Assembly: GCA_016840085.1 (NCBI GenBank)
Contig: JAEOTA010000084.1
Location: forward strand, 1 to 64,000
Length of the DNA: 64,000 nt
Direction: 5' to 3'
Source of the DNA: Promethearchaeota archaeon
GTDB lineage: Archaea > Asgardarchaeota > Lokiarchaeia > Sigyniarchaeales > SOKP01
Positions 10,015-26,758 of the stretch are shown piece after piece. Position numbers and translations under genes: made by a program. Positions within the stretch are counted from its first letter, which is position 1. Each line of letters begins with the position of its first letter. The notes beneath the pieces are model-generated. The model ran no database searches, was not told where the DNA came from, and saw only the letters and a list, made by a program, of their open reading frames with translations.

Positions 10015-10307
10015 TTATAGATGTATCAAAAAATGAAGATTTAATCGAAAATGTATTGGGGTCAAAAGCGAGAGTTAAGATCTTAAAAACCTTAGCTAGA
10101 AATAAGGAATTAACTCTTTCATTAATTATTAATAACACAAGATTAAATTACACTAATGTTATTAAACATTTAAATTATCTAAAAAAAATTAATGTAATCC
10201 AGGAAAAAAGATTTGGGCGTATTAAAATATTTAGATATAAGATAGAAAATATAAAAGCACGGAGCTTTAAAAATTTCTTAGATATTTGGGAGGGAGATTA
10301 CTATTAA
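10011..10307 (+). CDS. ArsR-like winged-helix protein
   Basis: LGSKARVKILKTL..VIKHLNYL..EKRFGRIKIFRY; start overlaps the cdc6 stop. Confidence 0.8.
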   Translation: MIIDVSKNEDLIENVLGSKARVKILKTLARNKELTLSLIINNTRLNYTNVIKHLNYLKKINVIQEKRFGRIKIFRYKIENIKARSFKNFLDIWEGDYY

Positions 10308-10308
10308 T

Positions 10309-10976
10309 TTGAATTTAATATATTTTTTAATTAACCAAAGCTTCATATACATAATATTTTTTATTTTTCTTTATTTAGATGTAAAATTAAGAAGAATCTC
10401 TATGAAGTCTTTTAAAAGTACATATATTATCGGGCTAATTTTTAATTTAATTGAATATTTATTGTTTTTTAACAATATATTTCTATTTTTATATATAAGA
10501 TTTTTTTTTTTTTATGTATTCTAATCATATCTTTTTTATTGTTTAATTTAAAAATAATTGGAGGAAGCGATGGAAAACTATTTATATTAATTTTTTTAAT
10601 ACAACCTATTCAAAATTTAAATATAAATTGTGTTTTCTTATTCTTCTTATCATTCTCGATTTTATTTATTATCATTTTTTTATTAAACCTATTGATTAAT
10701 AGTATTTTTATAAATTGCAATGCATTCATTATTTTATTTAGTTCAAATTTAAAAATATCAATTTTACAGAAATTTTTTTTAAAATCTTTCTTTAAGTTTT
10801 TTAACTTTTCAGATTTAAATAAAAATATGAGTATGAAGAATCCTGTAAGATCATTAATTTTGATTTATAATAACGAAAAGCAAAAATTCCAAATATTATG
10901 TCAATATCGACCTCCACTGATTATAATCATAATTCTATCTTATACCATACTATTATATTTAACAATTTGTTATTAA
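10309..10976 (+). pseudogene. A24 prepilin peptidase (TadV/PibD-like) split by a frameshift in a T13 run at 10501-10513
   Basis: First catalytic Asp motif YLDVKLRRI in ORF 10309-10524, second GGSDGK in ORF 10539-10976; adding one T fuses them (RFFFFLCILIISFLLFNLKIIGGSDGK). Confidence 0.8.
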
Positions 10977-11024
10977 TTATTTTACTTCGAATTAATTTTA
11001 AATTTAATAATTTTTATTAATTTA

Positions 11025-11453
11025 ATGAATTTTAATGATTTGTATTGTGAAAAGCAAAAGATGGAGATTGAAAAAACAAGAGAAACTTCATGGAAAATTC
11101 AATTAAAGAACAATAAAGAAAATATTGAAATAACTTCTGTGGAAATTAGTGGAGAAGTCAGGATTATAAAATTAGCATTATTTGATAATGAAAACTCTTT
11201 AAAAGTCGAGATGAGTAAAGAAGAATTTTTCAACTTTCTTTCTTTAATTTCAGCATTTAAAGATGTTGTAATAGGAGAAGAGTCCGTTTTTTTGGATGAA
11301 GATTCGGATTTAATTGAAAATGAACATTTAGGGATTCAAGAAGTTTTAGACTCAAATGATTTTTTATCTAAGATTAATGATGAATCCGCAGAAAAAGACA
11401 TAGATGATAATACTGGAGAAGAATTAAACCCTGAAGAATGGGATCCTTGGTAA
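11025..11453 (+). CDS. hypothetical protein, beta4-alpha domain with acidic tail ending EEWDPW
   Basis: 142 aa ORF with a very acidic C-terminal half. Confidence 0.7.
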   Translation: MNFNDLYCEKQKMEIEKTRETSWKIQLKNNKENIEITSVEISGEVRIIKLALFDNENSLKVEMSKEEFFNFLSLISAFKDVVIGEESVFLDEDSDLIENEHLGIQEVLDSNDFLSKINDESAEKDIDDNTGEELNPEEWDPW

Positions 11454-11459
11454 TATATT

Positions 11460-11951
11460 TCACATTTTTTTCATTTCAATTTTATATTCACAAAATTCTA
11501 AATTGGTATCTTCAATACAACACTGATTTTCAATAACATTTACTTTATATAAAGCAAATTCTCCAAAACCAGTTAATAATCCCGTTATGAAATAACAGAA
11601 ATATTTTGATTTATTTTCTAATTCTGAGGAAATATTATGAAAGAGATTAATGATAATCAAATCATCACTTATTTTTTTAGGAACAAATCGGCCCCACCCG
11701 TGATTAGTTATTATATTACAGAATTGATTTACTAAATCATCTAAAGATTTTGATTTTAAATTTTCATCCCAATTCTGAATTAATGTCCAACCTGCTTTTT
11801 TACCAAGCCAAACCAATAAAGATTTCACACCTTCACCGTAAATAGATGATAATATATCAATTACTTGTGGTGGAAAAAATACAAAGCGGTCATTAAACAA
11901 CTCGTATTTGCCTTTATTGTATTTTAAACCTTTGATTTTTAAAGTTTTCAT
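11460..11951 (-). CDS. V4R / TRAPP-Bet3-like protein
   Basis: LVWLGKKAG, HGWGRF, CYFITGLLTGF, ENQCC..CEY V4R pattern. Confidence 0.85.
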   Translation of the reverse strand: MKTLKIKGLKYNKGKYELFNDRFVFFPPQVIDILSSIYGEGVKSLLVWLGKKAGWTLIQNWDENLKSKSLDDLVNQFCNIITNHGWGRFVPKKISDDLIIINLFHNISSELENKSKYFCYFITGLLTGFGEFALYKVNVIENQCCIEDTNLEFCEYKIEMKKM

Positions 11952-12129
11952 AATTATTATCAGCTTTTTTTATTATATAATATTTTCTAACGCTATCTAC
12001 CTTTCTAAAAAAATATATCTTTAAAACATAAAAAAATGAAATAAACTAAAAATTCTGAGAAAAATCTAGATTTTTAATTTTATCTTAAGTTGAGACCTTT
12101 AAATAATTCAATAATAATCTAATTATTGA

Positions 12130-12429
12130 ATGATAGAATTAGATATATTAATTTTAGAGATTTATGTAATTTTAGCTATATTTATACTTATTTTTATATA
12201 TTCGGTAATTGCAACCGATACTGTGATAACTTTATTAGCATTTATAATGTTCTTAATTTTCTTAATTCCTTTCAATTTGCTATTAGAAAAATTAGAACTT
12301 CTAATATTTGTTAACAATTTTGAAAATTATAGTTTTTTCAGACTAGTTTTTTTTTATTCAATTCTTATAACTTTTTTCATAGGGATATTCTTATTTATTG
12401 AATTAATATATCTTACATTTTTATGCTAA
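12130..12429 (+). CDS. small membrane protein (about 3 TM)
   Basis: Highly hydrophobic 99 aa ORF. Confidence 0.6.
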   Translation: MIELDILILEIYVILAIFILIFIYSVIATDTVITLLAFIMFLIFLIPFNLLLEKLELLIFVNNFENYSFFRLVFFYSILITFFIGIFLFIELIYLTFLC

Positions 12430-12456
12430 TTAAATAATTACTTGATTATGTGTAAT

Positions 12457-13977
12457 TTAAATAAAGCTAAGAATACTTGTAAACGAGATTAAAAAGCTTA
12501 AAGTAAAAACTATATTTGTTGTCAATATTAAAATAAGTCTTTTATTATAATTAATGATCTTTAAGAAATAGTTAGTAGTAATTGAGACACTTGATAACAA
12601 AACTATTAAAATTCCTGCCATATTGAAAAGATTTACAGGAGTATTAAGGACACTCAAAAAATAATTATTATTTAAGCTAATATTTTTCATTATTCCTGTT
12701 AAAATAGGGAAAAATCCTGAGATTCCACCAATTATTATAGGTAAAAGGAAGATAAAGAAAAAAATCTTAAATTTTTCTCCTTTAATTATTATTTCCAATT
12801 TTCTTTCAAGTTTTTGATGTTTATTTATTAATTTTAAGATTTCAAAAATTTTATCAGCGGAAAAGTAAGAATCTCTTTTAATAAATTTTTCAATCACCTC
12901 TAATAACATACTATAACGTATCGTTTGTAATTCTAACTTTAAATTCTCAATAATTTCATCAAAAGAGTTAGAGAAATTTAAAAGCCAAGCTATTTGATTT
13001 TGTAAGGGTTTTTTTAATAGTATTATGAATTTTTTAGTTTGAGAATAAGATTTAAAGAAAGCTTGTTCAGGTGATGCATTATTTTTTAGATTAAAAGCAA
13101 AACTTTTTAGAAAAACTAAAAATTCATCAAATTTTTTTCTTTCAAAATTTGAATATTCATTTAAAAGTCCAATCATATAAGAATTTTTTCTCATAAATTT
13201 TCGAAATAATAAATTTAGAGAGAATAAAAAGAATGGAATGAAAAAGATTAAAAATAAAAAATTAACTATTTGGAATAAAATTAAAAAACATAAACCAATT
13301 GGAGAAAATAACCCTATAAAAAATATTATGCTAATTTTTGACTGTAGTTCCCTTAAATAGATTTTAAATCGCTTTTCTAAAGGATAACTATTATAGTCAT
13401 TTGAATTATTAAAAAAATTATTTAGCACAAGATTTTTTAGATAGTTGTTAAATTCATTTGAAGGTGTTATTATTCTAGTTAATTCTTTTTCTGGTAATCT
13501 ACCTTCATGAATTCTATTGAAAATATTTTTAAAATATGAAGAAAGAGGACTTCTAGAATTTTTAATTATTTTTATGAAATGAAGACAGTAATCAGAAGTT
13601 TTCTTTAAAGTCATTTCAATTAAAGAAAATTCAATTCTAATCAAATGAAGCATAGCATTAATCGATGATTCATTTCTATTAATCTCCTGATAAAGAATCA
13701 AATTAAATTTGTAAGAAACTATTATTGAAATCATAATTGAAAATAGAAATAAGATTAAAACATTTATAGACGTTAAAAGTATTGATAATATTAGAAAGGT
13801 AATTAATGAAGTTAAAAAGATTATAAAACTAGCTTTATTTATATCATCTGCTTCAATGTTATAAAGTTTTTTATAGATTTTATAGTACCTTTCATCTAAT
13901 TCTTTGAATCTTAATTTTGGTAATTTATATTTATTAAATTTCCTACATAAGTCAATATAATTTTCAAGGTTTATCAT
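12457..13977 (-). CDS. type IV pilus / Tad membrane platform protein (GspF/TadBC/ArlJ-like)
   Basis: TM pairs alternate with two helical cytoplasmic domains (LSSYFKNIFNRIHEG..PEKEL; SFAFNLKNNASPEQAF); downstream of a secretion ATPase. Confidence 0.7.
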   Translation of the reverse strand: MINLENYIDLCRKFNKYKLPKLRFKELDERYYKIYKKLYNIEADDINKASFIIFLTSLITFLILSILLTSINVLILFLFSIMISIIVSYKFNLILYQEINRNESSINAMLHLIRIEFSLIEMTLKKTSDYCLHFIKIIKNSRSPLSSYFKNIFNRIHEGRLPEKELTRIITPSNEFNNYLKNLVLNNFFNNSNDYNSYPLEKRFKIYLRELQSKISIIFFIGLFSPIGLCFLILFQIVNFLFLIFFIPFFLFSLNLLFRKFMRKNSYMIGLLNEYSNFERKKFDEFLVFLKSFAFNLKNNASPEQAFFKSYSQTKKFIILLKKPLQNQIAWLLNFSNSFDEIIENLKLELQTIRYSMLLEVIEKFIKRDSYFSADKIFEILKLINKHQKLERKLEIIIKGEKFKIFFFIFLLPIIIGGISGFFPILTGIMKNISLNNNYFLSVLNTPVNLFNMAGILIVLLSSVSITTNYFLKIINYNKRLILILTTNIVFTLSFLISFTSILSFI

Positions 13978-13990
13978 AAAATTGAAAGGT

Positions 13991-14413
13991 TTAATATAAA
14001 TTAATAAAATTTACAATAATATATGATGATGAGTAAGATACGTTAAGATGGTATAACTTTGATGGAATATTAAAAAAGGATTTTTTATAAAAACTAGTAT
14101 TATAAACTAAAATTTTGTTATAAATCTCGTTATTGATTATAAATGTGCAAATAATATAGTACTCATTAAAAGTAATGTTAAATTTACAGGGATAATTAAT
14201 TTCCCTAAGATAATCCTCTTCAGGATTTTGTATGACAAATTGAACAGCTTGATCAATTTCACTAATAAAAATCATATATGACTCTAAATCTGTGGTCTTA
14301 GTTTTATTAAATTCTGAAACTTGATCTAAAAAAGGAATTACTATAGAAATAAAAATCGTCAATGTAAAAATTCCAAAGCCTAATAACAATGACTTCTCTA
14401 ATAAATTTGTCAT
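13991..14413 (-). CDS. pilin-like protein (minor pilin)
   Basis: N-terminus TNLLEKSLLLGFGIF matches the mature N-terminus of the Flp-like pilin at 26552-26758; lies between the ATPase and platform genes. Confidence 0.6.
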   Translation of the reverse strand: MTNLLEKSLLLGFGIFTLTIFISIVIPFLDQVSEFNKTKTTDLESYMIFISEIDQAVQFVIQNPEEDYLREINYPCKFNITFNEYYIICTFIINNEIYNKILVYNTSFYKKSFFNIPSKLYHLNVSYSSSYIIVNFINLY

Positions 14414-14434
14414 ATAAAGTAAAGTTAAAATTTA

Positions 14435-16612
14435 TTAATTTAAACTTCGAGTCTTTTTCCAATTGTCCCAAAAATCTTTTAATGATCCTATTGAGTTAAA
14501 TGAGTAATAAGAAATCCTATGAAATAGTTCAATTAATTCATTAATTTCAATTTTTTTGAGTTTTGATATAAATTCAAAAATATCATGATATAAGTTAATA
14601 AATATGTTGAATTTATTTAAAGACAAATCTTCATATTTTCTTAATTCAGAAATCACACCAGTGTTAAAAAGATTTTTTAATAATTTCCATTTCTTAAATT
14701 TTGGACTATATTGAAAAATTGGACTATCAAATTTACCATTTTCGCTATTACTTTTATCAATTTCGACCAATGATACAATTCTTCTTTTATTAAATTCTTT
14801 TTTCATTAAAATTATCAGATCCAAATCAAATAAACATGATTTATTAATTTTGAAATGGTAAAGAAAACGATGAATTAAAGATTCTATGTCATTTGCATGA
14901 ATAGTTTGAAAACCTTTTAATCCTGCCGCTAAACAGTGAAATAAGGCTTCTGTTTCTTCTTTAGTCAAAATTTCACCTAGATAGATTATATCAGGAGTTC
15001 TATGTAAAAGTGTCTTAATTAGGTTACTTTTTGAATAATTTTGTCTAATAAGGTCCTCTAAAGAATCAGCTTTATATTTTAACTGATGTTTACCAAATTC
15101 ATTTTGGTTTAAAGACTCAGTAATATTTTCAACATAAATCTTTCTAAATTCCTTTGGAACTAATAAATCCAATGCATTAATTAATGTTGTTTTTCCTGTA
15201 TCTGTTTCACCCGTAACTGTTATATTAATTCTTCGCAATAGATTAAAATATAAAAATGCCGCCATCAACGGGTCTAAAGTATCACATTTTAATAAATCCT
15301 GCAATGTAAGAACATTTTTATTCAATTTGCGTATATCTAAAGCAAATCCATTTATTTGGATTGGGTCAATATCAATAGCAAATCTACAATTAAAAAATTT
15401 GTTTTTTATGACGAATTTTATCTGTGGATTCATAAAATCCAATCTTTTACCACTATATAATCTTATTAATGTTTTAAGACGTTCTATATCTTTCAAATTA
15501 AATCTAATCGAAGTTCTACATCTGCCAAATTTTTGATGATTTATGTATATTTCATCATTTGGAGAATCTAAGAATATTTCTTCAATTGAATTGTCAATTA
15601 ATAATGGGAATAACTTATCTAGATTTAATTTTTTTAGCGTAGCTAAGTAAGTAATCCTTCTTTTAACAATCTTAGAGAATTTATATTTTAAATTTAAATT
15701 TTTTAATATTTCATCTTTATAAATTTCAATTAAGGTTTCAAGAGGAATAATCTGATTGAATTCTTTAACTTCAATATTTTGAATTAAATCATTGATTATT
15801 TTTTCAGAGTAATCAGTATTTTCATTTTCTTTTGAATAAAATTTAACAAAATATCTTTTTTCGTATTCAAATGGAGTTCTATATATTTGTATTTGAAAGA
15901 CATCATCTTCTCCAATTCTATACTCTGATAATAAACTAAGATTTTCGTTTAAGCAAAAATTTCCGTATGTATGGGTCTTTTCTTTTAAATAAGCAAATTT
16001 AGAGAAGATATACTCGTAAAAATTAGTAAATTTATGAGCAAAAGTCTTATTATTTTGAAATGCCTTAAAATCTTTAATAACATTTAGATTTTCAAAAAGT
16101 TTTAGAACATATTTCTCAGAATTCTTAATATACTTATAACATTTCTGACATATAGGATCAAATATAATATTGTTTTCAGATCTAATATCTCTTTTAATGA
16201 GTAAACGATATACTAAAATTGGATCGTAATACTCAAAATCTTGGATTTTATATGTTGAAGAAAAACTTGGAAAGAATTTACATTTAAATTCTCCATAATT
16301 ACATTTTTTATTCTTAATTTCTTCTATTTTTTTATTTATTTTTTTGACTTTCTTTAACTTTTTAAAATATTCTAAAAATAATTTAACATTATGATACTCA
16401 ATCGTAATATCTTTTCCTAATAAAGAAATTTCATTGATCTTTTTATTTTTATTTTTAAATAAAATAGATAGTAAACAGTAGCGACAATCTTCATTTTTAA
16501 AAAAGTTTTTATCTTTTTTAAGACATTTATTACAATCAATAAATAAAATAGCTTCTTTTATACCATCTAAATTTTCTCTTTCTTGAAAATAACTTAAATT
16601 TTTTAAGATCAT
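14435..16612 (-). CDS. TadA/CpaF/VirB11-family secretion ATPase with Cys-rich N-terminal extension
   Basis: PLLIDNSIEEIF, LDIRK, Walker A GETDTGKTTLINAL, Walker B PDIIYLGEI, His box QTIHA. Confidence 0.9.
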   Translation of the reverse strand: MILKNLSYFQERENLDGIKEAILFIDCNKCLKKDKNFFKNEDCRYCLLSILFKNKNKKINEISLLGKDITIEYHNVKLFLEYFKKLKKVKKINKKIEEIKNKKCNYGEFKCKFFPSFSSTYKIQDFEYYDPILVYRLLIKRDIRSENNIIFDPICQKCYKYIKNSEKYVLKLFENLNVIKDFKAFQNNKTFAHKFTNFYEYIFSKFAYLKEKTHTYGNFCLNENLSLLSEYRIGEDDVFQIQIYRTPFEYEKRYFVKFYSKENENTDYSEKIINDLIQNIEVKEFNQIIPLETLIEIYKDEILKNLNLKYKFSKIVKRRITYLATLKKLNLDKLFPLLIDNSIEEIFLDSPNDEIYINHQKFGRCRTSIRFNLKDIERLKTLIRLYSGKRLDFMNPQIKFVIKNKFFNCRFAIDIDPIQINGFALDIRKLNKNVLTLQDLLKCDTLDPLMAAFLYFNLLRRINITVTGETDTGKTTLINALDLLVPKEFRKIYVENITESLNQNEFGKHQLKYKADSLEDLIRQNYSKSNLIKTLLHRTPDIIYLGEILTKEETEALFHCLAAGLKGFQTIHANDIESLIHRFLYHFKINKSCLFDLDLIILMKKEFNKRRIVSLVEIDKSNSENGKFDSPIFQYSPKFKKWKLLKNLFNTGVISELRKYEDLSLNKFNIFINLYHDIFEFISKLKKIEINELIELFHRISYYSFNSIGSLKDFWDNWKKTRSLN

Positions 16613-16743
16613 TTAAACTTTTTTTTGTAAAGAAAAATTTAAATAACCCTCTTTTATTCATTAATGAAAATCAGTAGAATTACATTTCAATAAAAAAATT
16701 TATTTATTTTGAAAGATTCCTAAACAAAAGTTCGTGATAAAAT

Positions 16744-17763
16744 ATGGGTCATCGAAAAAAACATGCACCAAGACATGGATCGTTAGCATTTCTGCCGAGA
16801 AAAAGAGCAGCAACAATAAAATCCCGAATAAGAAATTGGATAGATTATGGAGATGATATAAATCTTCTTGGATTTGCAGGTTTTAAGGTTGGTATGACTC
16901 ATATTATATATATTGAGGATCAACCAAACAGTCCCTACTATGGAAAAGAATTATTGAAGCCTGTGACTATTATTGAAATTCCTCCATTAGTACTCATAGG
17001 ACTTAGAGTATATAATGAAGATGAGTATGGAAAATTTATTGTTGGAGAAATTTTCATTAATGATTTTAATAAATTCCTGGCTCGAAAAATAAATCTCCCT
17101 AATAGAGAAAATTATAACAAAACAGAACTAAAAAATAAAATTTTGGAGAATTTAAATTATACCAGTGATATTAGAGGGATTTTTCAAACTCAGCCCTATA
17201 GAACCTCACTACCAAGAAAAAAACCAGATATAATAGAAATTAAGATAAATTCAATAAATCAATTTGAAGAAGAATTCAATTATTTATTTGATAAGTTAGG
17301 AAAAGAAATTAGAGCTCGAGAAGTATTAAAAGAAGGAGAGTTGGTAGATGTTATTGCTGTCACTAAAGGAAAAGGATTTCAAGGACCTGTTAAACGATTT
17401 GGTATTAAGATTTTAACCAGAAAAAATAGCAAAATCAGAAGAGCTGTAGCATGTATTGGACCTTGGCATCCTGCGAGGGTTTTATACACCGTACCTCGTG
17501 CGGGACAGCTAGGTTTTCATCAAAGAACTGAATATCATAAAAGAATTATGGTAATCGGTGAAAACGAAGAAGAAATTAATCCAAAGGGCGGGTTTATTCG
17601 TTATGGTAAAGTTCGAGGAGATTACCTATTATTATTAGGCTCTATTCCAGGATCTAAGAAAAGATTAGTAAGATTAAGGAAAACTATTCGACCTTTAGGA
17701 TCTTTTATTATTAAATCACCAGAAATTACATTTATAAGCAGAGAAAGTCAACAGAGAAAATGA
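16744..17763 (+). CDS. rpl3: 50S ribosomal protein L3
   Basis: PRHGSLAFLPRKRA, GFKVGMTH, TKGKGFQGPVKRFG, GPWHPARV. Confidence 0.99.
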   Translation: MGHRKKHAPRHGSLAFLPRKRAATIKSRIRNWIDYGDDINLLGFAGFKVGMTHIIYIEDQPNSPYYGKELLKPVTIIEIPPLVLIGLRVYNEDEYGKFIVGEIFINDFNKFLARKINLPNRENYNKTELKNKILENLNYTSDIRGIFQTQPYRTSLPRKKPDIIEIKINSINQFEEEFNYLFDKLGKEIRAREVLKEGELVDVIAVTKGKGFQGPVKRFGIKILTRKNSKIRRAVACIGPWHPARVLYTVPRAGQLGFHQRTEYHKRIMVIGENEEEINPKGGFIRYGKVRGDYLLLLGSIPGSKKRLVRLRKTIRPLGSFIIKSPEITFISRESQQRK

Positions 17764-17785
17764 AATAAATTATAAGAGGGATTAT

Positions 17786-18574
17786 ATGGATAAAGTTAAT
17801 GTTTATAGTTTAGAGGGAGAAAAAAAGGATCTAGTCAATAAACCACCAATTTTTTATATTAAGCCAAGAAAAGATGTCATCCAAATGGCAAGTTCCGGCT
17901 CACAAAGTAGAGGAAAACAAATTCAGGGAAGAGATAAAGGTGCTGGTCTAAAAAATATCTCAAAAGGTTGGGGAACAGGATATGGTATGTCAAGAGCACC
18001 AAGAATAAAAGGGTCTGGTTTTCCTACAGCTCGGCATGTAGGCAGAGTTCCTTTTGCTAAAGGTGGGAGACGTACACATCCTATTAAAACCGAGAAAAAA
18101 ATCAAGAAAAAAGTTAATAAAAAAATTAACAAATTATCCATTATTTCTGCGATCTCTGCTTCTGGAGATGAAAACTGGGTGAGTTCAAGAGGTTATAAAA
18201 CTGACGATATACCTGAAATTCCTTTAGTTATTGATGATAAAATACAAACTATTAAAAAAACTAATAGAATCTATTCAATTTTATGTAATTTAGGATTAAA
18301 AAACGAGTTATTAAAAATAAAGAATGGGAAAAAAGTTAGAGCTGGAAAAGGTAAACTAAGAGGACGTAAATATAAAAACAAAAAAGGAATATTAATTATA
18401 ATAAAGGATGATTTTGGGATTATAAAAGCATCTAGAAATATTCCTGGTACAGATGTAATAACAATTGAGACCTTATCGATTAATAATTTGGCACCTGGAG
18501 GCGCCCCAGGCAGATTAATATTATGGACGCAATCAGCTTTCAATGAGTTAAATAATTTTGAGGTGCATTTTTGA
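17786..18574 (+). CDS. rpl4: 50S ribosomal protein L4
   Basis: [32 protein letters not shown]. Confidence 0.98.
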
Positions 18575-18575
18575 A

Positions 18576-18839
18576 GTGGAGAAATTTTATACTATTATAA
18601 AGAGACCTTCGATTACTGAAAAAACTTTTGATTTAATTGAAAGAGAAAATAAATTAGTATTTATTGTTAATAGAACTGCGAACAAAAACCAAATTAGAAA
18701 AGCGGTAGAAAAGATACATAATGTAAAGGTAATAAAGGTTAATACTTTGATTTCTTCAAAGGGAGAGAAAAAAGCGTTTGTTAAGCTTCATCCAGATTAT
18801 TCAGCGCAAGATATTGCAATTGATTTAGGGATATTTTAA
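18576..18839 (+). CDS. rpl23: 50S ribosomal protein L23 (GTG start at 18576 preferred)
   Basis: [31 protein letters not shown]. Confidence 0.97.
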
Positions 18840-19961
18840 TTATGTCTTATTTTTAAAAATTTTGAGATCAAAATTTGAAATATTATCGAGGAGGATAACT
18901 TTGATATTTTTTAATTTGTTAATCTCTTTTATTTGAGATAATTTTTCGTAATCTAATTTATTCAATAGAAAAAAATAGATAAGATATTTTAAGTAATATT
19001 TTTTGATAATACGTTGAATATAATTCGATTCTAATATTGGTAAAATTACAATTAAAAAAGCTTGTTCAACAAGTAATAATTTATTGCTTAGCCTAGTAAA
19101 TTTGATTTTATTATTTATTAGATTTTGCTCAAATTTTGAATTGAATTTCAACAATAAAGGTAAAAAATAGTGTTCTTTAGTTATAAATAAATTGTAAAAA
19201 AACCTTAAAAGATAAGCATCATCAGAAATTCTTAATCTCCATAAGTAATTAAGTAATTTTTTAATTTTTACATTCTGTTTTTTTAGTATATTATTATCAA
19301 AGAAATTATTTACCTTTTCGGCAATATCCGAAGTATAATTAAGTTTATTACTTACTTCAACAAAATATGAGCAAATTTGTATTTCATCTATGAAATTGAT
19401 TTGAAAATTGAAGAATAAGTACCCAACTCGATTATAATTTTGAATTAGACTTGCAAATGAGTCAATAAAAGAATTTTTCTTTTCTAAATATTCTAGACTA
19501 ATTTTATAAAAATCTAATAATCTCAATCTTTTTTCATTTCTGATTAAGAGTGCCCCTGAGTTCTCTGTAATAGTTATATTAGAATTTATTTTTTCAAAAA
19601 TAACCTGTAAAAAAAGTTTTTCTAACGTACTATTTTCTAAAAATTTAATCGAAATTTCGCATTCACATAACTTTTGATAAATTATATTAAAAATTTTAGT
19701 AATTCCCTCTTTTTCTGTATCTTCAAAATTTAATAGAATTGTGTGTTTTTCTTTGGTAGCGGTATATATTTGAACAGAATAATAATGAATAAACCTTTGT
19801 CTTAAGAAATCATTCATTAATAAGATTATTGGATTAAATGTATTTGATTCAATTGCAGCAAATGCTATAAATTTGTTATTGTTGTTAAAACTTTTATAAT
19901 AAATTAAAAATCTATCAATTATATATGAAAATAATTTATATTTACCCTTTTTGACCATCAA
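18840..19961 (-). CDS. hypothetical protein
   Basis: 373 aa ORF, no recognisable motif. Confidence 0.7.
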   Translation of the reverse strand: MMVKKGKYKLFSYIIDRFLIYYKSFNNNNKFIAFAAIESNTFNPIILLMNDFLRQRFIHYYSVQIYTATKEKHTILLNFEDTEKEGITKIFNIIYQKLCECEISIKFLENSTLEKLFLQVIFEKINSNITITENSGALLIRNEKRLRLLDFYKISLEYLEKKNSFIDSFASLIQNYNRVGYLFFNFQINFIDEIQICSYFVEVSNKLNYTSDIAEKVNNFFDNNILKKQNVKIKKLLNYLWRLRISDDAYLLRFFYNLFITKEHYFLPLLLKFNSKFEQNLINNKIKFTRLSNKLLLVEQAFLIVILPILESNYIQRIIKKYYLKYLIYFFLLNKLDYEKLSQIKEINKLKNIKVILLDNISNFDLKIFKNKT

Positions 19962-20237
19962 TAATTATTTTCTGTTAAAAATATAAAAACGTATGAATTT
20001 TTTTAGTTTATTTTTTGGAATTATTTAATTAATTGTAATAAAAAAATTGGGTGAAAGTTTAGTTGATAAAATTTATTTTAGAGATCTAATTGAATGCAAT
20101 AACTAGGTCTGAGATTTGACATATCTTCTGATTTAGGTAGAGCTATTAGCTAGTTCAAATAAGAAATAATCTAATATCCAAAATTTTAAAGTATCATCGA
20201 TTTTATATTAAATTAAAATCTATCTTAGGTTTTATAT

Positions 20238-21500: not shown

Positions 21501-21543
21501 TCTATTATGTATTTTATAAATAAAAGTAATTAGGAGATTTAAA

Positions 21544-21726
21544 TTGAGTAAATTCGAACGTTATAAAAATGAAACTGGAACTTACATTTATCCTCATAAA
21601 CACTGCAAGAACTGTGGTGAAATGATATCTGAAGCATTTACATACTGTTCAGAATGTTATACCAAGCTAAAAGAAAAGAAAAAGCGAAAATTATTTAGTA
21701 GAAAAACAAAACATCATAATTTTTAG
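21544..21726 (+). CDS. DUF2116-like Zn-ribbon protein
   Basis: PHKHCKNCG..YCSECY and a basic tail. Confidence 0.7.
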   Translation: MSKFERYKNETGTYIYPHKHCKNCGEMISEAFTYCSECYTKLKEKKKRKLFSRKTKHHNF

Positions 21727-21752
21727 TAGTTATTTTAAGAAAAGTAAAAATT

Positions 21753-23456
21753 TTAAATATTAAATCTATTTATTAACCAACTCTTATCTAATAAAGTTAA
21801 AAAAGAACCCAATCTTGGACCATAATTCTTCCCTAGAATTACTTGATATATTGCTCCAAATAACTTTCTTGGTGGGATTTTTAATTTTTCCTTTGCAATA
21901 GTAAATATCTTATTTTGCAAAGACTCTGGATCTATTAGCTCATTTTCATTTAAATATTCTCTTAAAAGAAAAATACCTTTTTTTTGAGTATTATTTAAAT
22001 CATTTAATATTTTACCATCAACTTTCTCAGGAATAGTAAATATATTAACCTTTCTTAAGATTTCTTTTTTTATTTTTTCATTTTTCTCACTCTCAATAAT
22101 ATCTTTTACTTCATTGATCCATTTGCTAGTTTGATTGATTAATTCTTCAAATTGTTCAATAGTGATAAAATTCTCAAAATCCTCATATTGAGTTGCATTT
22201 TTTGCTTTCTGATATAATTTTTCTATACTTAAAATATTCTGAATTTGAGTTAAAAATGTTAATGATTTAAAAGAAATTTGTACAGTTTTTTTTCTTGGAA
22301 TTTCATCAATTTGAGTTAATGGATAAATATATTTTAGATTTTCAGGATAATCACCACTTTCTTTAGTTTGTGAGAAGTATGTATCTTCCATCTTTTCATA
22401 GTAATCATAATATTGTGGAAGTTCTTCAATTCTAAATGCAATGTGTTTTATTGGGTTGGTCCTTAGTATTAAGGTCCTAAATACTTCAGGTTTGGCAATT
22501 TCAAGATATTTTTTTGGTGTAAAAACAATACCTTTTGATGTTTTCATGTCACGATCTCCTAATCTCAACCATTCATAAGGAACTTTTACAGGTCCTATAT
22601 ACTCGTATACTTCCTTACATAATTCTAATCCTGTGTCATAAGCTCCACCTTTTACACTATGATCTTTACCTGCAGGTTCACACGTAGTGTTATACAAAGA
22701 CCATTTAGCAGGCCAATCTACTCGCCAATTCAATTTTAACCTCCCACTATAAATTGATATTTTTCCTGTAGTCCCACAAGCATTACATTTATAGCTGACT
22801 TGTTGCTCATCTTTGATGTATTCAGTTACTCTATTGGGTATAATTGTACCATCTTTGGTCCGATGTTGAATTTTATCGCAATTTTCGCAAATTACCATTA
22901 CTGGCATCCAGGTTTTTTGCATTTCTGTAAAATATTGTTTCTTTACATCATCTAATGTAGGTAAAATATATTTTCCAATTATTTTTTTAATTTTAGCTGT
23001 ATTCTCAAGAGCCATTTTTATTTTTTCTTGCATTTCTTTAGTATTATATAACTCATGTGTCCATATTATTTGCGTTTTTATCCCAAAATTTCTGAATGAA
23101 GATGTTAAATCATTACCAAAATGATATGCCCAACTTTTACAATTGCAATCTTTAAAAGGGCAAGGAATAAAAGAAAAAGGTTTCCCCAAATGTTTTTCTT
23201 GGAAGCTTTTATCGATATATGGAGGAAATCTCTTAGCAGCATCAAAACTATCTAAAAATAAAAAAAACCTTACTTTATAGCCTTTACTTTTAAAGATTCT
23301 TCTTAAAGAGTCACAAATTATTATTTCTCTTAATATTCCTAGATGTATATACCCAGAAGGTGTTTTTCCTGTTGCTAAAGTAATCGGTGTTTCATTTCTC
23401 TCTAAAATTTTTTCAACTATTTCCTCTAACCAGTGAACTGGATATTCTTCAGTCAA
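21753..23456 (-). CDS. lysS: lysyl-tRNA synthetase, class I
   Basis: HW, TPSGYIHLG, KLNWRVDWPAKW, EPAGKDH, MKTSKG, GPRLGSF. Confidence 0.98.
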   Translation of the reverse strand: MTEEYPVHWLEEIVEKILERNETPITLATGKTPSGYIHLGILREIIICDSLRRIFKSKGYKVRFFLFLDSFDAAKRFPPYIDKSFQEKHLGKPFSFIPCPFKDCNCKSWAYHFGNDLTSSFRNFGIKTQIIWTHELYNTKEMQEKIKMALENTAKIKKIIGKYILPTLDDVKKQYFTEMQKTWMPVMVICENCDKIQHRTKDGTIIPNRVTEYIKDEQQVSYKCNACGTTGKISIYSGRLKLNWRVDWPAKWSLYNTTCEPAGKDHSVKGGAYDTGLELCKEVYEYIGPVKVPYEWLRLGDRDMKTSKGIVFTPKKYLEIAKPEVFRTLILRTNPIKHIAFRIEELPQYYDYYEKMEDTYFSQTKESGDYPENLKYIYPLTQIDEIPRKKTVQISFKSLTFLTQIQNILSIEKLYQKAKNATQYEDFENFITIEQFEELINQTSKWINEVKDIIESEKNEKIKKEILRKVNIFTIPEKVDGKILNDLNNTQKKGIFLLREYLNENELIDPESLQNKIFTIAKEKLKIPPRKLFGAIYQVILGKNYGPRLGSFLTLLDKSWLINRFNI

Positions 23457-23544
23457 AATATCTTCACTATTTAGCTAATTCTTTATAGATTTAATGAATA
23501 TATTTATTTATCATTTTTGATTTTAAATAATAGTGAAGTAACTA

Positions 23545-25368
23545 ATGAGGATCGCAGTTCTCAATAGGGATTTTTGTAAACCTGATAAATGTAGTCCTTT
23601 TGGAGAAAAGCCCTGCATAAAATATTGTCCTAGAGTGAGAACTGGCGATAAAACTATAGTTTTAAGTCCAGATGAAAAATATGTAATAATTACTGAATCT
23701 CTCTGTTCCGGAGAGGGTATATGTATTAAAAAGTGTCCTTTTAACGCGATAAATATTGTTAATTTACCAGATCCATTAGAAAATCAAATTTCATATCGAT
23801 ATGGAGTAGATCAGTTTTCTTTATTTCGAATGGCAATCCCTAAAAGAGGAAAAGTTCTTGGTTTAATTGGACAAAATGGAATTGGAAAGAGTACTTTACT
23901 AAAAATCTTATCTAATGAAATAAAAATAAATCTCGGTAGATTTGGTGATGAAGCGCCTAATTGGAAGGAAATAATTGATCATTATAAAGGATCAGAACTA
24001 CACCAATACTTTATTGATCTTAAAGAAAATAAGATAAAAATTGTTCATAAACCTCAAAATATAACTATAATTCCAAAATTTGTCTCTGGAAAAGTATTTG
24101 ATCTTCTAAGTAAGAATAATGCTGAGAAAAGATTAGAACATATAATAGAAAAATTAAATCTTAAAGAGATATTAGAGAGAGAAATATCAGTATTATCAGG
24201 CGGTGAACTCCAGAGAGTAGCCATTGCTGCTGCATATCTTAAGGACGGAGATGTATACCTATTTGATGAGCCGAGTTCTTATTTAGATGTGAGTGAAAGA
24301 ATTAATATAGCAAAATTAATCAGGAGTTTATCAGAAGAGGATAAAACAATAATAGTTGTTGAACATGATTTAGCCATATTGGATTACTTAAGTGATTATG
24401 TATCTCTTCTCTATGGTGGGCCTGGAGTATACGGAATTGTTTCTCATCCTCAGGGTGTCAGAGTTGGAATTAATATTTATTTAAATGGATATATTAAAGA
24501 TGAAAATGTAAGATTTAGAGAAATTCCTATTGTATTCCATGAACGTCCACCTCAAGAATCCTTATATGATTCTGGAGATGTTATTTTCTCTTATGATGAT
24601 ATTGAAACTTCTTTAGGAAATTTTCATTTAACTATAGCAGGGAGTGAAATCCATGCTGGTGAAATCATTGGAATATTGGGTCCAAATGGAATTGGAAAAA
24701 CTACATTTGTAAATTCTATTGCTAAAATCGTTGAAACTGATGACAAAAAAATAAAAAGTAATAAGCTAGCAGATGATAATTATAAATTAAAAGTTTCTAT
24801 AAAACCACAATATATTAAAATAGAAGAAATAGGATTAGTTTCTGATATTATAAATAAAATTAAGTTAGCACCTCATCTTAGTCAATCATCTAAAAAGCGA
24901 TTAATTAATATTTTAAATTTAGAAAATATTAGAGAAAGAAAAATCCCAGAATTAAGTGGAGGAGAACTACAAAGAGTTGCTATAGCAAAATGTTTATTAA
25001 GTGAAGCTGATATTTATTTGTTTGATGAGCCATCTGCATTCTTGGATATTGAAATGCGATTACAAGTTGCTCAACTATTAAGGAAATCTATAGAAGAATT
25101 AAAAAAAGCTAGTTTTGTTGTTGAACATGATATAATAACACAAGATTTTATCGCAGATTCGATTTTAGTATTTGAAGGAACTCCTGGATTGAGGGGAAAA
25201 GCTTTAGCGCCTCAAAACTTAAGAGATGGATTTAATAAATTTTTAAAAATAATGGAAATTACATTCAGGAGAGATTCTATAACAAAAAGACCCCGAGTAA
25301 ATAAATTAGGAAGTAATAAAGACATTTATCAAAAAAAGATTAATGAATATTATTATATTCCAAAATAG
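23545..25368 (+). CDS. rli: ABCE1/Rli1 ribosome recycling ATPase
   Basis: N-terminal Fe-S cysteines, two GxNGIGK and LSGGELQR motifs, ITFRRD..RPRVNK. Confidence 0.98.
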   Translation: MRIAVLNRDFCKPDKCSPFGEKPCIKYCPRVRTGDKTIVLSPDEKYVIITESLCSGEGICIKKCPFNAINIVNLPDPLENQISYRYGVDQFSLFRMAIPKRGKVLGLIGQNGIGKSTLLKILSNEIKINLGRFGDEAPNWKEIIDHYKGSELHQYFIDLKENKIKIVHKPQNITIIPKFVSGKVFDLLSKNNAEKRLEHIIEKLNLKEILEREISVLSGGELQRVAIAAAYLKDGDVYLFDEPSSYLDVSERINIAKLIRSLSEEDKTIIVVEHDLAILDYLSDYVSLLYGGPGVYGIVSHPQGVRVGINIYLNGYIKDENVRFREIPIVFHERPPQESLYDSGDVIFSYDDIETSLGNFHLTIAGSEIHAGEIIGILGPNGIGKTTFVNSIAKIVETDDKKIKSNKLADDNYKLKVSIKPQYIKIEEIGLVSDIINKIKLAPHLSQSSKKRLINILNLENIRERKIPELSGGELQRVAIAKCLLSEADIYLFDEPSAFLDIEMRLQVAQLLRKSIEELKKASFVVEHDIITQDFIADSILVFEGTPGLRGKALAPQNLRDGFNKFLKIMEITFRRDSITKRPRVNKLGSNKDIYQKKINEYYYIPK

Positions 25369-25681
25369 ACTAATTATTTAGGCCTCTTGAAATTGTTTTC
25401 TGATTAATATATTTTTATACACCTTGATTTCAAGTGGACTTTCTTATTAAGTAAAATTTAGAAATAATTTTTTAAATAGATAATATTAAAATTTTAATAA
25501 TATAATTTAAATACTATTATAATAGATCTTACTGGGCCCTATTCTAAAATAAATAGATATCAATTATTTATTACTATTCTAAAACTAATTTTCCAGTCGA
25601 AGTTTAAGAGTCTTTAATGATAATGTTAATTTAGAAATAAAATATACAAAAAAATAATATTAAAAAAATATTTGTTAATAT

Positions 25682-25936
25682 TTATGTTTTTAATTTCCAA
25701 AAAACAAGAGGTCTTCCCCTTTTACCATTATTACGGGTAAATTTTTCAATTATTTTTCTTTTTTGGAGTTTAACTAAATTATCATAAATAGTAGTTCTAG
25801 GCGTATTTAGTTGCCTTACTAATTCTCGCCGAGTAACTGATCCTGTATTTTCTAAAGTCTTGATTAGATTATGTTGAATTGGAGATAAGTAGTCTTTTGA
25901 ATCAACGAATTTTCCAATCAAAATTTTATTTGACAT
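25682..25936 (-). CDS. TrmB-like wHTH regulator
   Basis: TRRELVRQLNTPRTTIYDNLVKL..GRP. Confidence 0.85.
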   Translation of the reverse strand: MSNKILIGKFVDSKDYLSPIQHNLIKTLENTGSVTRRELVRQLNTPRTTIYDNLVKLQKRKIIEKFTRNNGKRGRPLVFWKLKT

Positions 25937-26152
25937 ATTCTATTCCTCCACATTTTAAAAAATTTTTAAAAACGACAATTTTTCGACTTTTTTATTTTTT
26001 AGATTAAAAATCTATTCCTATGATTTAATAGATTCAAATTATATTTAAATGATGCTTATTTATGTATTATTATCATCAATAAGCACAAAAATTTAAAAAT
26101 AATAATTATTAATTAAAGGTTGTATAATAATTAAATTTTAGAATCATAAGAA

Positions 26153-26527
26153 ATGACAGAAACAACAAGAACGACTGTTACTCTGAATAAAAGTTATATG
26201 AAATTAGTAAAGGATTTAGTCGATGTTTTTGGTGCAACAAGGGCTCAAGTAATAACCAACATTGTAGAATATTTTTTTAATGATAGTAAAAATGACCCCT
26301 TGTTAGAAAAACTAAGAGCTAGAAAAAGAAAAGAAAAACTTCCTGAAGAATTTGAACTTGATAAGAAAATTAAAATTTACTTAAAAAGAACAGACAATAT
26401 ACCTTTTAATATTTTTTTAGATCACCTAAAATTGGATGCAGACTTTGTTATTGACCATCTGGATGAGTGGGGAGAAAAATATAACTTCAAATTAATTAAT
26501 AACAATATTATCAAAGATAAAAAATAG
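26153..26527 (+). CDS. ribbon-helix-helix domain protein
   Basis: N-terminal RTTVTL..LVKDLVDVFGATRAQVITNIVE. Confidence 0.65.
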   Translation: MTETTRTTVTLNKSYMKLVKDLVDVFGATRAQVITNIVEYFFNDSKNDPLLEKLRARKRKEKLPEEFELDKKIKIYLKRTDNIPFNIFLDHLKLDADFVIDHLDEWGEKYNFKLINNNIIKDKK

Positions 26528-26551
26528 TTATTTTCTATTTTATATAATAAT

Positions 26552-26758
26552 CTAATTACCTCCAAATAACTGTAGGAAGTCATTAGAAAGTCCAGTTGTC
26601 CAATCTAACATGGATGAAATAACTCCAACAATAATAAAGAAGATAAATAAAGCAAATCCGATTAATAATGCATACTCTACCAAATTTCCTCCATATTCAT
26701 CAGAAAAGAAATCTAAAATTTTATTTTTAAACTTTTTAATAGTTTTTTTTATATTCAT
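26552..26758 (-). CDS. Flp/Fap-like major pilin
   Basis: 68 aa; basic leader, FFSDEYG|GNLVEYALLIG with E+5/Y+6 (Flp motif), then one hydrophobic helix. Confidence 0.85.
   Translation of the reverse strand: MNIKKTIKKFKNKILDFFSDEYGGNLVEYALLIGFALFIFFIIVGVISSMLDWTTGLSNDFLQLFGGN

Follow-up and report, generated by a model that had tools for sequence, protein, structure and literature searches.

The window, by which we mean the whole 64,000-nucleotide stretch of Promethearchaeota DNA analysed here, probably encodes the parts of one archaeal type IV filament machine, a reading to which we give a probability of about 0.78. The first-pass annotation had proposed that genes scattered over this region form one filament system with a very short Flp-like prepilin, and the homology, conservation and linkage of the parts bear this out: the genes it named are all present at the positions listed below, and their conservation and synteny go far beyond chance.

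In the mechanism we propose, a 68-residue prepilin would enter the membrane, where an A24 aspartyl peptidase would cut off its 23-residue basic leader after Gly23 so that the mature helix of 45 residues would begin G-N-L-V-E and have its Glu at +5. From there a hexameric secretion ATPase, seated on the polytopic platform protein, would draw the pilins from the membrane and assemble them into a helical filament, thin and head-less, that would resemble the Tad or Epd pilus and might serve adhesion, cell-cell contact or DNA exchange. A second, 140-residue pilin-like protein would not need the peptidase: once the initiator Met was removed, it would begin T-N-L-L-E, with Glu at +5 here too, and it would probably prime or cap the filament. 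The family would have been inherited vertically in Asgard and TACK archaea, usually in the order TFB-like gene, ATPase, TadB-like gene, TadC-like gene and Flp-like pilin gene, with fused platform genes and a long Cys-rich ATPase N-terminus in the window's own family and about 10 kb of housekeeping genes between pilin gene and operon in the window. The features concerned are the following, each with the evidence on which it was named.

5175..6245 (+): divergent TFB (TFIIB-like) paralogue; HMM of ATPase-adjacent TFB-like genes
8815..10014 (+): Orc1/Cdc6 paralogue, first in an apparent orc1-wHTH-peptidase operon; NCBIfam TIGR02928, 250 bits
10011..10307 (+): small winged-helix (ArsR-like) DNA-binding protein; Pfam HTH_5, 24.9 bits
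10309..10524 (+): prepilin peptidase, N-terminal piece with the first catalytic Asp motif (LYLDVKLRRIS); orthologue HMM
10501..10513 (+): T13 run at which the peptidase frame breaks; comparison with orthologues
10539..10976 (+): prepilin peptidase, C-terminal piece with the second catalytic Asp motif (GGSDGK); orthologue HMM
11025..11453 (+): conserved neighbour, acidic protein of 142 aa; synteny in locus L013, 44% identity
11460..11951 (-): conserved neighbour of 163 aa resembling the C-terminal part of MsvR; NCBIfam MsvR, E 3e-6
12130..12429 (+): small membrane protein with three helices, its gene convergent to that of the platform; paralogue on contig C69
12457..13977 (-): platform protein of 506 aa, a TadB-like half joined to a TadC-like half; hhalign and fold search
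13991..14413 (-): leaderless pilin-like protein, 140 aa; orthologue alignment and profile match
14435..16612 (-): type IV filament assembly ATPase, 725 aa, N-terminal extension with eight conserved Cys positions; Pfam T2SSE
18840..19961 (-): protein of 373 aa; paralogue on contig C69
26552..26758 (-): Flp-like prepilin, 68 aa; profile, PDB and hhalign comparisons

The Flp-like prepilin gene and its linkage to the ATPase

The 68-aa ORF, whose translation contains FFSDEYGGNLVEYALLIGF, is the only one in the 4.68-Mb genome to encode a short protein in which the pattern G-x4-E-[YFW] precedes a hydrophobic run close to the N-terminus. It is a genuine gene: more than 390 homologues were found at 70-85% identity, 160 of the 201 sampled Asgard genomes have a match, nearly always in single copy, and its pN/pS is 0.21 (pS 0.66). 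Read from its sequence, the product is a prepilin with a charged short leader, Gly at -1, Glu at +5 and a hydrophobic helix, and the mature pilin is predicted to be all-helical and 45 aa long. The G|xxxxEY processing motif (G23|GNLVEY) stands in a prepilin of less than 90 aa, and the Gly/Glu+5 signature is invariant in the alignment of the family.

The likeness to bacterial Flp proposed by the first-pass annotation held up in two profile comparisons. Against the PDB, the best two matches of the family profile were the solved Tad pilins 8u2b and 8u1k, aligned over residues 4-41 of the mature Tad pilins and in a register that places cleavage at G23|G24 and Glu at +5. With hhalign, the annotated Flp of Sodalis was matched at E 2.5e-5, both the leader end and the EYAL core being aligned, G23|GNLVEY with SDQRG|VTTIEYAL. 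Flp_Fap (PF04964, gathering cut-off 32.2 bits) was the best Pfam family among the relatives, in 11 of 25 and 14 of 45 members, and among the Pfam matches listed for them there was none to Class_IIIsignal. The window's pilin itself had no Flp_Fap match at E <= 1, and its Asgard relatives all scored under the gathering threshold (best close relative, E 0.0076), an E of 6e-13 being reached solely by distant members of the wider family.

The pilin gene co-occurs with the ATPase and platform genes, the opposite of what the first-pass annotation had named as grounds for dropping its proposal. Of 17 distant genomes, 11 have a homologous ATPase gene no more than 10 kb from the pilin gene, and outside the window's family the distance is at most 4 kb in 25 of 38 loci; loci of Bathyarchaeia, Methanomethylicia, Thermoprotei and Nitrososphaerota are among those with an ATPase-linked Flp-like gene. 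The set is syntenic across Asgard classes, in orders such as orc1-wHTH-peptidase-flp-ATPase-p134-platform (L014) and ATPase-TadB-TadC-flp (L016 and L023); a ParA/MinD gene was seen in L023 only, among the loci examined. Since the pilin gene stands beside the ATPase in other Asgard lineages, the dispersed layout is a derived state of the window's family and not, as had been supposed, a property of the system. Judged by gene content, most Asgard and some TACK relatives carry the predicted machine with its tiny, strongly conserved Flp-like pilin.

The mature part of this pilin is near-invariant across the alignment, and typical pilins are less conserved than that. Such conservation is unusually strong for a pilin and therefore a role other than that of a surface filament subunit may be considered. 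The genes could then belong to a repurposed or remnant type IV filament system that makes no pilus, the Flp-like protein being a membrane subunit with another role, for example one linked to transcription or to secretion. The tight linkage of TFB and Orc1 paralogues would fit this, as would the description of loci with TFIIB, an ATPase and a diverged TadC as pilin-less and possibly not type IV pili (PMC4858521, PMC13705601). We nevertheless hold it to be improbable: a pilin gene does adjoin such loci in Asgard and TACK genomes, the pilin keeps its Gly/Glu+5 signature and its likeness to solved Tad pilins, the cluster retains an A24 peptidase of its own as well as another pilin-like gene, and every part is either widely conserved or under purifying selection. 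It does count against a surface filament that protrusions of cultured Promethearchaeales were reported without filaments on their surface, unlike those of Hodarchaeales strains (bioRxiv 10.1101/2025.02.26.640444).

ATPase, leaderless pilin-like protein and platform

The ORFs of the ATPase, the 140-aa pilin-like protein and the 506-aa platform form one tight operon, the layout that had first been described; its platform is one fused gene and not a separate TadB and TadC. The ATPase scores 62.9 bits against Pfam T2SSE (cut-off 24.9), and eight Cys columns of its N-terminus are conserved in 53-78% of 32 relatives. It had first been called TadA-like, for which the comparisons give no specific support: NCBIfam gives 112 bits for FlaI, 75 for the TadA family and 63 for VirB11, the PDB gives 99 bits for afGspE, 87 for FlaI, 46 for CpaF and 30 for VirB11, and a quick tree places CpaF with FlaI-like sequences on long branches, apart from the window's ATPase family. 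By these scores it is an archaeal type IV filament ATPase nearest to afGspE and FlaI. A search of 72,556 plasmids with the ATPase core gave 348 matching records; among the 40 of these that were listed, the annotated ones were all CpaF or a generic T2SS/T4P ATPase and none was VirB11 or TrbB, so that CpaF is, by sequence, the nearest bacterial ATPase among the plasmid matches listed.

That place of CpaF, together with the leader end and core of the pilin, which resemble bacterial Flp, is what could be said for a bacterial Tad locus gained by horizontal transfer. We regard such a transfer as highly improbable, given that afGspE and FlaI, both archaeal, are much nearer to the ATPase than CpaF is, that the system is spread over Asgard and TACK archaea with the conserved archaeal neighbours TFB and Orc1, and that the window has no separate TadB and TadC genes.

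The 140-aa protein is probably a minor or priming pilin. All 28 full-length orthologues share the N-terminus M-[T/S/P/G]-x-[L/I/M]-x-E-[K/R]-x-[L/M]-x-x-[G/A]-[F/Y/L]-G and have an in-frame stop 1-13 codons upstream of the start, and none of these 28 aligned sequences has a leader. Its N-terminus matches the Flp-like profile at E 3e-4, and the AlphaFold model (pLDDT 92) has residues 2-62 in a helix and, after it, a sheet of seven strands; fold searches with this model were uninformative.

The platform protein has no sequence match in Pfam or the PDB, and its more than 200 homologues are all named hypothetical. Other Asgard and TACK lineages have split platform genes, one of which is over the Pfam T2SSF threshold (30.8 bits). 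With hhalign, residues 32-263 of the window's protein align with the first split gene (probability 96%, E 3e-9) and residues 281-498 with the second (97%, E 3e-11). The best structural matches of its AlphaFold model (pLDDT 77) were PilC 2whn_B (Z 10.2) and PilC 3jc8 (Z 9.9), followed by SpoIIIAB (Z 9.6), EpsF (Z 8.4) and TcpE (Z 8.1), so that PilC, EpsF and TcpE domains make up four of the six best matches and SpoIIIAB a fifth. Going by alignment and model, the 506-aa protein is a joining of the two TadB/TadC-like genes of other lineages and has the GspF/PilC/TadBC fold.

Prepilin peptidase and its break at a T13 run

The first-pass annotation had taken 10309-10976 for one A24 peptidase gene; its intact orthologues do belong to that family, but the stretch is not a single ORF, and of the two catalytic Asp motifs, both present, the first lies in one frame of this assembly and the second in another. 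Against an HMM of intact orthologues the N-terminal piece scores 31 bits (E 4e-7) and the C-terminal piece 157 bits, the latter reaching 21 bits with Pfam Peptidase_A24 (cut-off 26.5 bits). Intact orthologues are single ORFs of 215-235 aa, and seven of nine exceed that cut-off, with 29-39 bits. The C-terminal frame is open from 10473, that is, back through the T13 run, where one extra T or a -1 shift would restore a peptidase of orthologue length. No other site in the genome has a T run of at least 11 between long ORFs in two frames.

In this assembly the sole candidate peptidase gene is thus out of frame, an observation that counts against a working machine.

The break recurs in the same direction, at poly-T, in four further genomes (G132, G049, G150 and G077), so that a -1 break is common to five species of two genera, with T runs of 11, 13, 13, 13 and 15; in G030 an in-frame T14 stands at the equivalent site. 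It could be thought that the system is off or decaying in this organism, its only peptidase gene being a frameshifted pseudogene. The gene is indeed split at T13, neither Pfam nor the family HMM found a second A24 gene in the genome, and the short Flp-like paralogue on contig C69 has lost its leader. On the other hand, both halves of the peptidase are open and conserved with the same -1 break in all five species, and pilin, ATPase and platform are intact and conserved in genomes with a broken peptidase. A poly-T break that recurs in this way is easier to reconcile with a one-base under-call, reversible phase variation, slippage during transcription or a -1 ribosomal shift than with decay, to which we give little credence.

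Neighbouring genes and known systems

The TFB gene scores 338 bits against an HMM built from the ATPase-adjacent TFB-like genes of five other Asgard loci, and merely 24.6 bits (TFIIB repeat) and 22 bits (Zn_Ribbon_TF) against Pfam. Such a gene adjoins the ATPase in 32 of 80 loci, which are nearly all the loci outside the window's family, TACK included; the window's copy is 8 kb away from its operon. The Orc1 gene is one of five or six Orc1 paralogues of the genome, and the wHTH gene, which overlaps its stop, in relatives invariably accompanies an orc1 paralogue. The orc1-wHTH pair is found less than 10 kb from the Flp-like gene in nine loci (L013, L014, L022, L023, L024, L027, L028, L030 and L031), and L016 has orc1 without wHTH within that distance.

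Other neighbours are conserved as well. The 142-aa acidic protein matches no Pfam family; the 163-aa MsvR-like protein is syntenic in L013 (60%) and, with two copies, in L014 (44%); the small membrane protein is 46% identical to its paralogue in the C69 locus and has a 100-aa counterpart after the platform gene of L014. The 373-aa protein, which is not TFB-like and has no Pfam match, shares 31% identity over 359 aa with C69:115973-117091, immediately upstream of the C69 ATPase. This paralogous locus holds the only other type IV filament ATPase found in the genome, in which no other pilin or peptidase of these families was found, and a second TFB copy adjoins it; both loci stand beside an Orc1 paralogue and a divergent TFB paralogue.

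The Ups pili of Sulfolobales are under Orc1-2 and TFB3. By analogy, the filament might be a pilus induced by stress or DNA damage for aggregation or DNA exchange, under its own Orc1 and TFB paralogues; this would refine the function of the type IV filament machine and not replace it. The position of both loci beside such paralogues and the linkage of the orc1-wHTH pair to pilin or ATPase in many Asgard classes point this way, but the basis is gene neighbourhood alone and the Orc1 linkage may reflect conserved origin-proximal synteny, and we consider such induction rather unlikely.

No closer relatives of eukaryotes are known than the Asgard archaea, which live in tight physical partnerships. 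The analysis shows that they have a complete, conserved gene set with its own pilin, peptidase, ATPase and platform, a concrete candidate for a surface filament; type IV filament genes are rarely ordered in Asgard genomes according to the latest survey (PMC13705601). The set also presents three oddities: its pilin is as conserved as housekeeping proteins are, one pilin-like subunit has no leader, and the frame of the only prepilin peptidase is broken repeatedly.

Among known systems, the loci outside the window's family, with TFB beside the ATPase, look like the subclade 4D of Makarova, Koonin and Albers 2016 (PMC4858521), which is the subsystem 4D of the 2026 PLoS Genetics survey (PMC13705601). 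Both have a TFIIB-like gene in the locus, an ATPase with an extra N-terminal domain and conserved cysteines, and partner membrane proteins too diverged to show TadC similarity by sequence; 4D is found in Thermoproteota, and 17 Asgard genomes were reported to have components specific to it. The published 4D loci are described as pilin-less and were considered possibly non-functional or a repurposed remnant (PMC13705601, PMC4858521), whereas the present set includes an Flp-like pilin that is conserved, an A24 peptidase of its own and a pilin-like protein without leader, and the window's family differs further in its TFB gene 8 kb away and its single fused platform gene. Tentatively, and against somewhat adverse odds, we suggest that the mini-pilin may be the missing subunit of the "pilin-less" 4D systems, which would be a working pilus, near-universal in Asgard and present in many TACK archaea, with its own TFB and Orc1, a minor pilin bypassing the peptidase by Met removal and, in some Lokiarchaeia-type genomes, a poly-U-gated sole peptidase.

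The Epd pilus of Methanococcus maripaludis ("system 1") likewise has a short head-less major pilin, a dedicated peptidase and two adjacent platform genes with the ATPase before or after them; it differs in that published system 1 occurs mainly in methanogens, Thermococcales and DPANN, and in that no FlaH/KaiC-like second ATPase was seen in the present loci examined. Compared with the bacterial Tad/Flp system (type IVc: Flp, TadV, TadA/CpaF, TadB, TadC), the pilin is under the Pfam Flp_Fap cut-off, the ATPase is nearer to archaeal ones and has a long Cys-rich N-terminus, the window's platform is fused and the minor pilin is without leader. The two are alike in the basic leader ending ...DE.G, the x4-E-Y motif and the single helix, in a mature pilin of 45 aa, equal to that of solved Tad pilins, in an A24 peptidase with the peptidase domain alone in Pfam and, in most lineages of the present family, in two single-domain platform genes. 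An archaeal origin of Tad has already been published (Denise et al. 2019, PMC6668835), and the Flp-like mini-pilus could be the best living archaeal model for the origin of bacterial Flp/Tad pilins.

The Flp-like pilin and its relatives

The assembly that carries the window (G000) is archaeal, 4.68 Mb in 89 contigs, with a G+C content of 29.5% for the genome and about 25% for the window. The closest relatives of the window genes come from metagenome-assembled genomes (MAGs) labelled Promethearchaeota (Asgard), and housekeeping genes (L3, L4, class I LysRS, ABCE1/RLI, HIT and NIF3) surround the filament genes. The gene set is real and represents a lineage-specific variant within a conserved family of archaeal type IV filaments. 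The positions that the first-pass annotation gave for the pilus parts agree with the ORF coordinates, except for the peptidase stretch:

5175-6245 (+), TFB-like gene
8815-10014 (+), orc1 paralogue
10011-10307 (+), small winged-helix protein (wHTH)
10309-10524 (+) and 10539-10976 (+), two peptidase pieces
12457-13977 (-), 506-aa platform protein
13991-14413 (-), 140-aa pilin-like protein
14435-16612 (-), assembly ATPase
26552-26758 (-), 68-aa Flp-like prepilin, predicted cleavage between G23 and G24

A word-indexed search returned more than 390 homologues of the 68-aa ORF (65-85 aa, about 70-85% identity among the matches listed), all from Asgard MAGs or sediment metagenomes; many carry the database name 'Flp pilus assembly pilin Flp' (JGI) and a few 'Flp family type IVb pilin' (NCBI). 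In the alignment of the Flp-like proteins, the leader is variable and the predicted mature part almost invariant. To survey the gene, a profile of 25 members was run on 201 sampled Asgard genomes, and 160 of these were matched, nearly always with one copy. The protein is under purifying selection since its mature part shows a pN/pS of 0.21 at a pS of 0.66 among 12 close orthologues. Between genera of the same family the mature pilin is ~83% identical, compared with 63-66% for HIT, 49-53% for NIF3 and 89-90% for the ABCE1 C-terminus. A 124-aa ORF without family match (26153-26527) adjoins the pilin gene and is kept beside it, with 73-79% identity across the genus and 41-43% in a sister genus.

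The window's own 68-aa protein matched nothing in Pfam at E <= 1. Flp_Fap is the Pfam family most often matched by its relatives, with hits for 11 of the 25 close relatives (best E 0.0076) and for 14 of the 45 members of the wider pilin family (best E 6e-13). When the pilin profile was run against 1.84 billion representatives, 56 proteins were found at E <= 1e-3, forming a continuum from ...GG/NLVEYALLIGF... through ...RGS/PLVEEGLLIGL... to sequences resembling ordinary bacterial Flp. Among all PDB sequences, the top two matches of the wider pilin profile were the Tad pilins 8u2b/8ucr (E 0.005) and 8u1k (E 0.014), which align to it from residue 4 of their mature chains, indicating that the mature N-terminus of the window protein is Gly24, with Glu28 at +5. 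The Flp-like sequence FFSDEYGGNLVEYAL was also aligned by hhalign (E 2.5e-5, probability 75%) with LISDQRGVTTIEYAL, an annotated Flp taken as reference from a complete Sodalis tad operon. Judged by these Pfam, PDB-profile and hhalign matches of its relatives, the 68-aa protein is a distant relative of Flp prepilins and is predicted to work alike. The first reading of it as a bacterial-style Flp pilin stands as far as this distant relationship and the Tad pilins as top PDB matches go; the protein itself stays below the curated Pfam threshold of Flp_Fap.

The assembly operon

The window ATPase scores 62.9 bits against Pfam T2SSE. The NCBIfam model that fits it best, archaellum FlaI, gives 112 bits, well short of its own cut-off; the TadA family scores 75 bits and VirB11 63 bits. 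Among solved structures, archaeal afGspE ranks first (99 bits), ahead of FlaI (87), CpaF (46), VirB11 (30) and PilT (27). The ATPase core matched 348 records in 72,556 plasmids; among the 40 matches listed, the annotated ones were all CpaF or generic T2SS/T4P ATPases, and none was VirB11 or TrbB. The N-terminal 160 residues hold eight Cys positions, each conserved in 53-78% of 32 family members. G000 encodes only one other such ATPase, a paralogue on contig C69 (46% identical); a third T2SSE match, on contig C79, was discarded as a pilus ATPase, being of the PINA type. A search for FlaI-like ATPases at E <= 1e-100 (from about 390 bits) matched 46 of the 201 Asgard genomes and none of the 40 genomes of the window's family.

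In a quick tree of 60 rows, the window ATPase falls in a well-supported clade of Promethearchaeota sequences with long ATPases and fused platforms. In the same tree, built without Epd, Aap or Ups references and with a PINA outgroup whose branch is very long, CpaF joins the FlaI-like sequences on long branches, and the placement of this pair among the pilin-linked ATPases is weakly supported. A long ATPase of the Asgard type, which the tree makes sister to the C69 paralogue, is found on a 61-kb contig labelled 'Patescibacteria group bacterium' (L106, JANBVM010000002.1); this contig is probably mis-binned or mislabelled.

The second gene of the operon encodes the 140-aa protein, whose 28 full-length orthologues all start M-[T/S/P/G]-x-[L/I/M]-x-E-[K/R]-x-[L/M]-x-x-[G/A]-[F/Y/L]-G. 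A leader is impossible in all 28 because an in-frame stop lies 1-13 codons upstream of the start. Met aminopeptidase cleaves off a Met that precedes Thr, Ser, Pro or Gly, and its removal here would place Glu at +5, as in processed pilins. Among all ORFs of G000, the 140-aa N-terminus matched the Flp-like profile with an E of 3e-4. In the predicted structure (pLDDT 92), a helix of 60 residues leads into a seven-strand sheet. Since Foldseek and VIA searches with this model gave generic long-helix matches only, the pilin likeness of the protein rests on its N-terminal sequence, its operon position and its predicted helix-plus-sheet architecture.

The 506-aa platform protein has 200 or more homologues, all 'hypothetical' and without a Pfam domain; profile searches against Pfam, NCBIfam and PDB gave no match, nor did Foldseek with the whole model, and Pfam T2SSF matched nothing anywhere in G000. 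Two kinds of evidence were informative, hhalign to split genes and the VIA search. In other Asgard lineages, two genes, one of about 270-300 aa and one of 220-245 aa, come after the ATPase gene; one of these split genes scores 30.8 bits against Pfam T2SSF and passes it, and a further one scores 22.4 bits. In hhalign, the 506-aa family matches the first split gene with its residues 32-263 (96%, E 3e-9) and the second with its residues 281-498 (97%, E 3e-11). The AlphaFold model (pLDDT 77) was submitted to a wide VIA search, without Foldseek, of 48,161 chains, and the top matches, all on residues 271-404, were cytoplasmic domains: PilC (Z 10.2 and 9.9), SpoIIIAB (9.6), EpsF (8.4) and TcpE (8.1). 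For helical bundles such Z values are modest; among the six best rows, however, platform proteins take four places and SpoIIIAB one.

Peptidase break and gene arrangement

The A24 prepilin peptidase had been read as one gene at 10309-10976. Both catalytic Asp motifs are indeed present, D-x-K-x-R-R-I-S in the first piece and GGSDGK in the second, but the two ORFs that carry them differ in frame. A T13 run lies just before the end of the first ORF, and the second frame is open back through this run:

10501-10513, poly-T break of the peptidase gene; same site in the relatives' loci L035, L036, L041 and L047

One extra T or a -1 shift restores the conserved-motif spacing of an intact same-genus orthologue (by residue count). 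In most relatives, both Asp motifs lie on one ORF of 215-235 aa, and 7 of 9 intact orthologues pass the Pfam Peptidase_A24 cut-off; no match was obtained for the peptidase among PDB sequences. The gene is split at the same place, in a run of T11-T15, in five species (G000, G132, G049 and G150 of one genus and G077 of another), all requiring the same -1 correction. A sixth genome (G030) has an in-frame T14 at this position, and one genome of the window's genus has an intact peptidase without poly-T run. Apart from the T13 site, no T run of >=11 in G000 has long ORFs in two frames on its flanks, and a genome-wide scan, which is blind to the difference between a one-base under-call and a real frameshift, indicates that the genome is not riddled with homopolymer frameshifts. 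The only other poly-T site with long ORFs in two frames alongside is a T10 at G000:C48:673, a possible second frameshifted gene. The break could reflect a systematic one-base under-call, transcriptional slippage, -1 or programmed frameshifting, or phase variation. No second prepilin peptidase was found in G000 with the Pfam and orthologue HMMs; a weak HMM match on contig C75 was rejected as a Phe-rich low-complexity ORF without Asp motifs.

The orc1 paralogue, the small winged-helix gene and the peptidase (8815-10976) look like one operon, and in many Asgard classes the orc1-wHTH pair accompanies the pilin or the ATPase. In G000, the two type IV filament loci each adjoin an Orc1 paralogue and a divergent TFB paralogue, which on C69 lie just beyond the filament genes (125972-130528). 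This second, paralogous locus (G000:C69:110001-129000) has its genes on one strand over 12 kb.

Table. Genes of the C69 filament locus
Paralogous ATPase; same strand; about 8 kb from the platform gene
Platform gene; one strand with the rest of the locus; 39% identical to the window's
Flp-like gene; C69:123745-123909 (-); 54 aa, leaderless, start M-G-S-L-I-E-K
Paralogue of the small membrane protein; same strand
Paralogue of the 373-aa protein; same strand
Several membrane and acidic proteins; same strand

The paralogue of the 373-aa gene directly precedes the C69 ATPase. In the window, L3, L4 and a 93-aa ORF (16744-18839) lie between the ATPase and the 373-aa gene (18840-19961), which suggests that a rearrangement broke up an older cluster. 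The 373-aa protein was dismissed as a hidden TFB (hhalign probability 0.06%).

To study linkage, 20 kb around the Flp-like gene were inspected in 17 distant Asgard genomes, and in 11 of them a homologue of the window ATPase lies <=10 kb away, in line with the expected co-occurrence of pilin and ATPase across Asgard. In a locus of the same order (L014), orc1, wHTH, peptidase, flp, ATPase, a 134-aa pilin-like gene, platform, small membrane protein and a p163-like gene are contiguous, and a locus of another genus of the same family (L013) has the window gene order, but with flp immediately upstream of the ATPase. By coordinates, 11-14 kb separate the pilin gene from the operon in five genera of the window's family, and 2.3 kb in one. 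The system had been called dispersed; this holds in the window, where the genes are apart, but the arrangement is derived, although stable, since the pilin gene adjoins or nears the operon in L013, L014 and other Asgard. One Asgard genome of 1.4 Mb has a gene for a ParA/MinD-type ATPase (L023, 14223-14888) just upstream of its filament ATPase gene, an arrangement that recalls TadZ in bacterial tad loci.

The wider family, subclade 4D and Tad

An alignment of seven ATPases was used to collect 80 loci from GTDB species genomes, the non-Asgard ones belonging to Bathyarchaeia, Methanomethylicia, Culexarchaeia, Thermoprotei, Thermofilaceae and Nitrososphaerota. Outside the window's family, a Flp-like gene lies <=4 kb from the ATPase in 25 of 38 loci, and where both split platform genes were found the usual order is ATPase, TadB-like, TadC-like, Flp-like. 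Of the 80 loci, 32 have a divergent TFB-like gene next to the ATPase, and almost all of these 32 are outside the window's family; the window TFB paralogue (5175-6245) scores 338 bits against the profile of these ATPase-linked TFBs and only 24.6 bits against Pfam TFIIB.

Literature searches for an Asgard Flp-like pilin found no describing paper, and a Flp-like subunit of this archaeal filament family appears unreported within the literature searchable here. According to the 2026 PLoS Genetics survey, which never mentions Flp, genes for type IV filaments are seldom found in order in Asgard genomes (PMC13705601). Bacterial Tad has already been derived from an archaeal Epd-like system (Denise et al. 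2019, PMC6668835). Compared by described features, the architecture of the wider family matches 4D, the archaeal subclade of Makarova, Koonin and Albers (PMC4858521) and subsystem of the October 2026 survey (PMC13705601), for which both papers reported no pilin and suggested a remnant or repurposed system. 4D and the present family share TFIIB, a Cys-rich N-terminus of the ATPase, and membrane proteins that have diverged beyond recognition.
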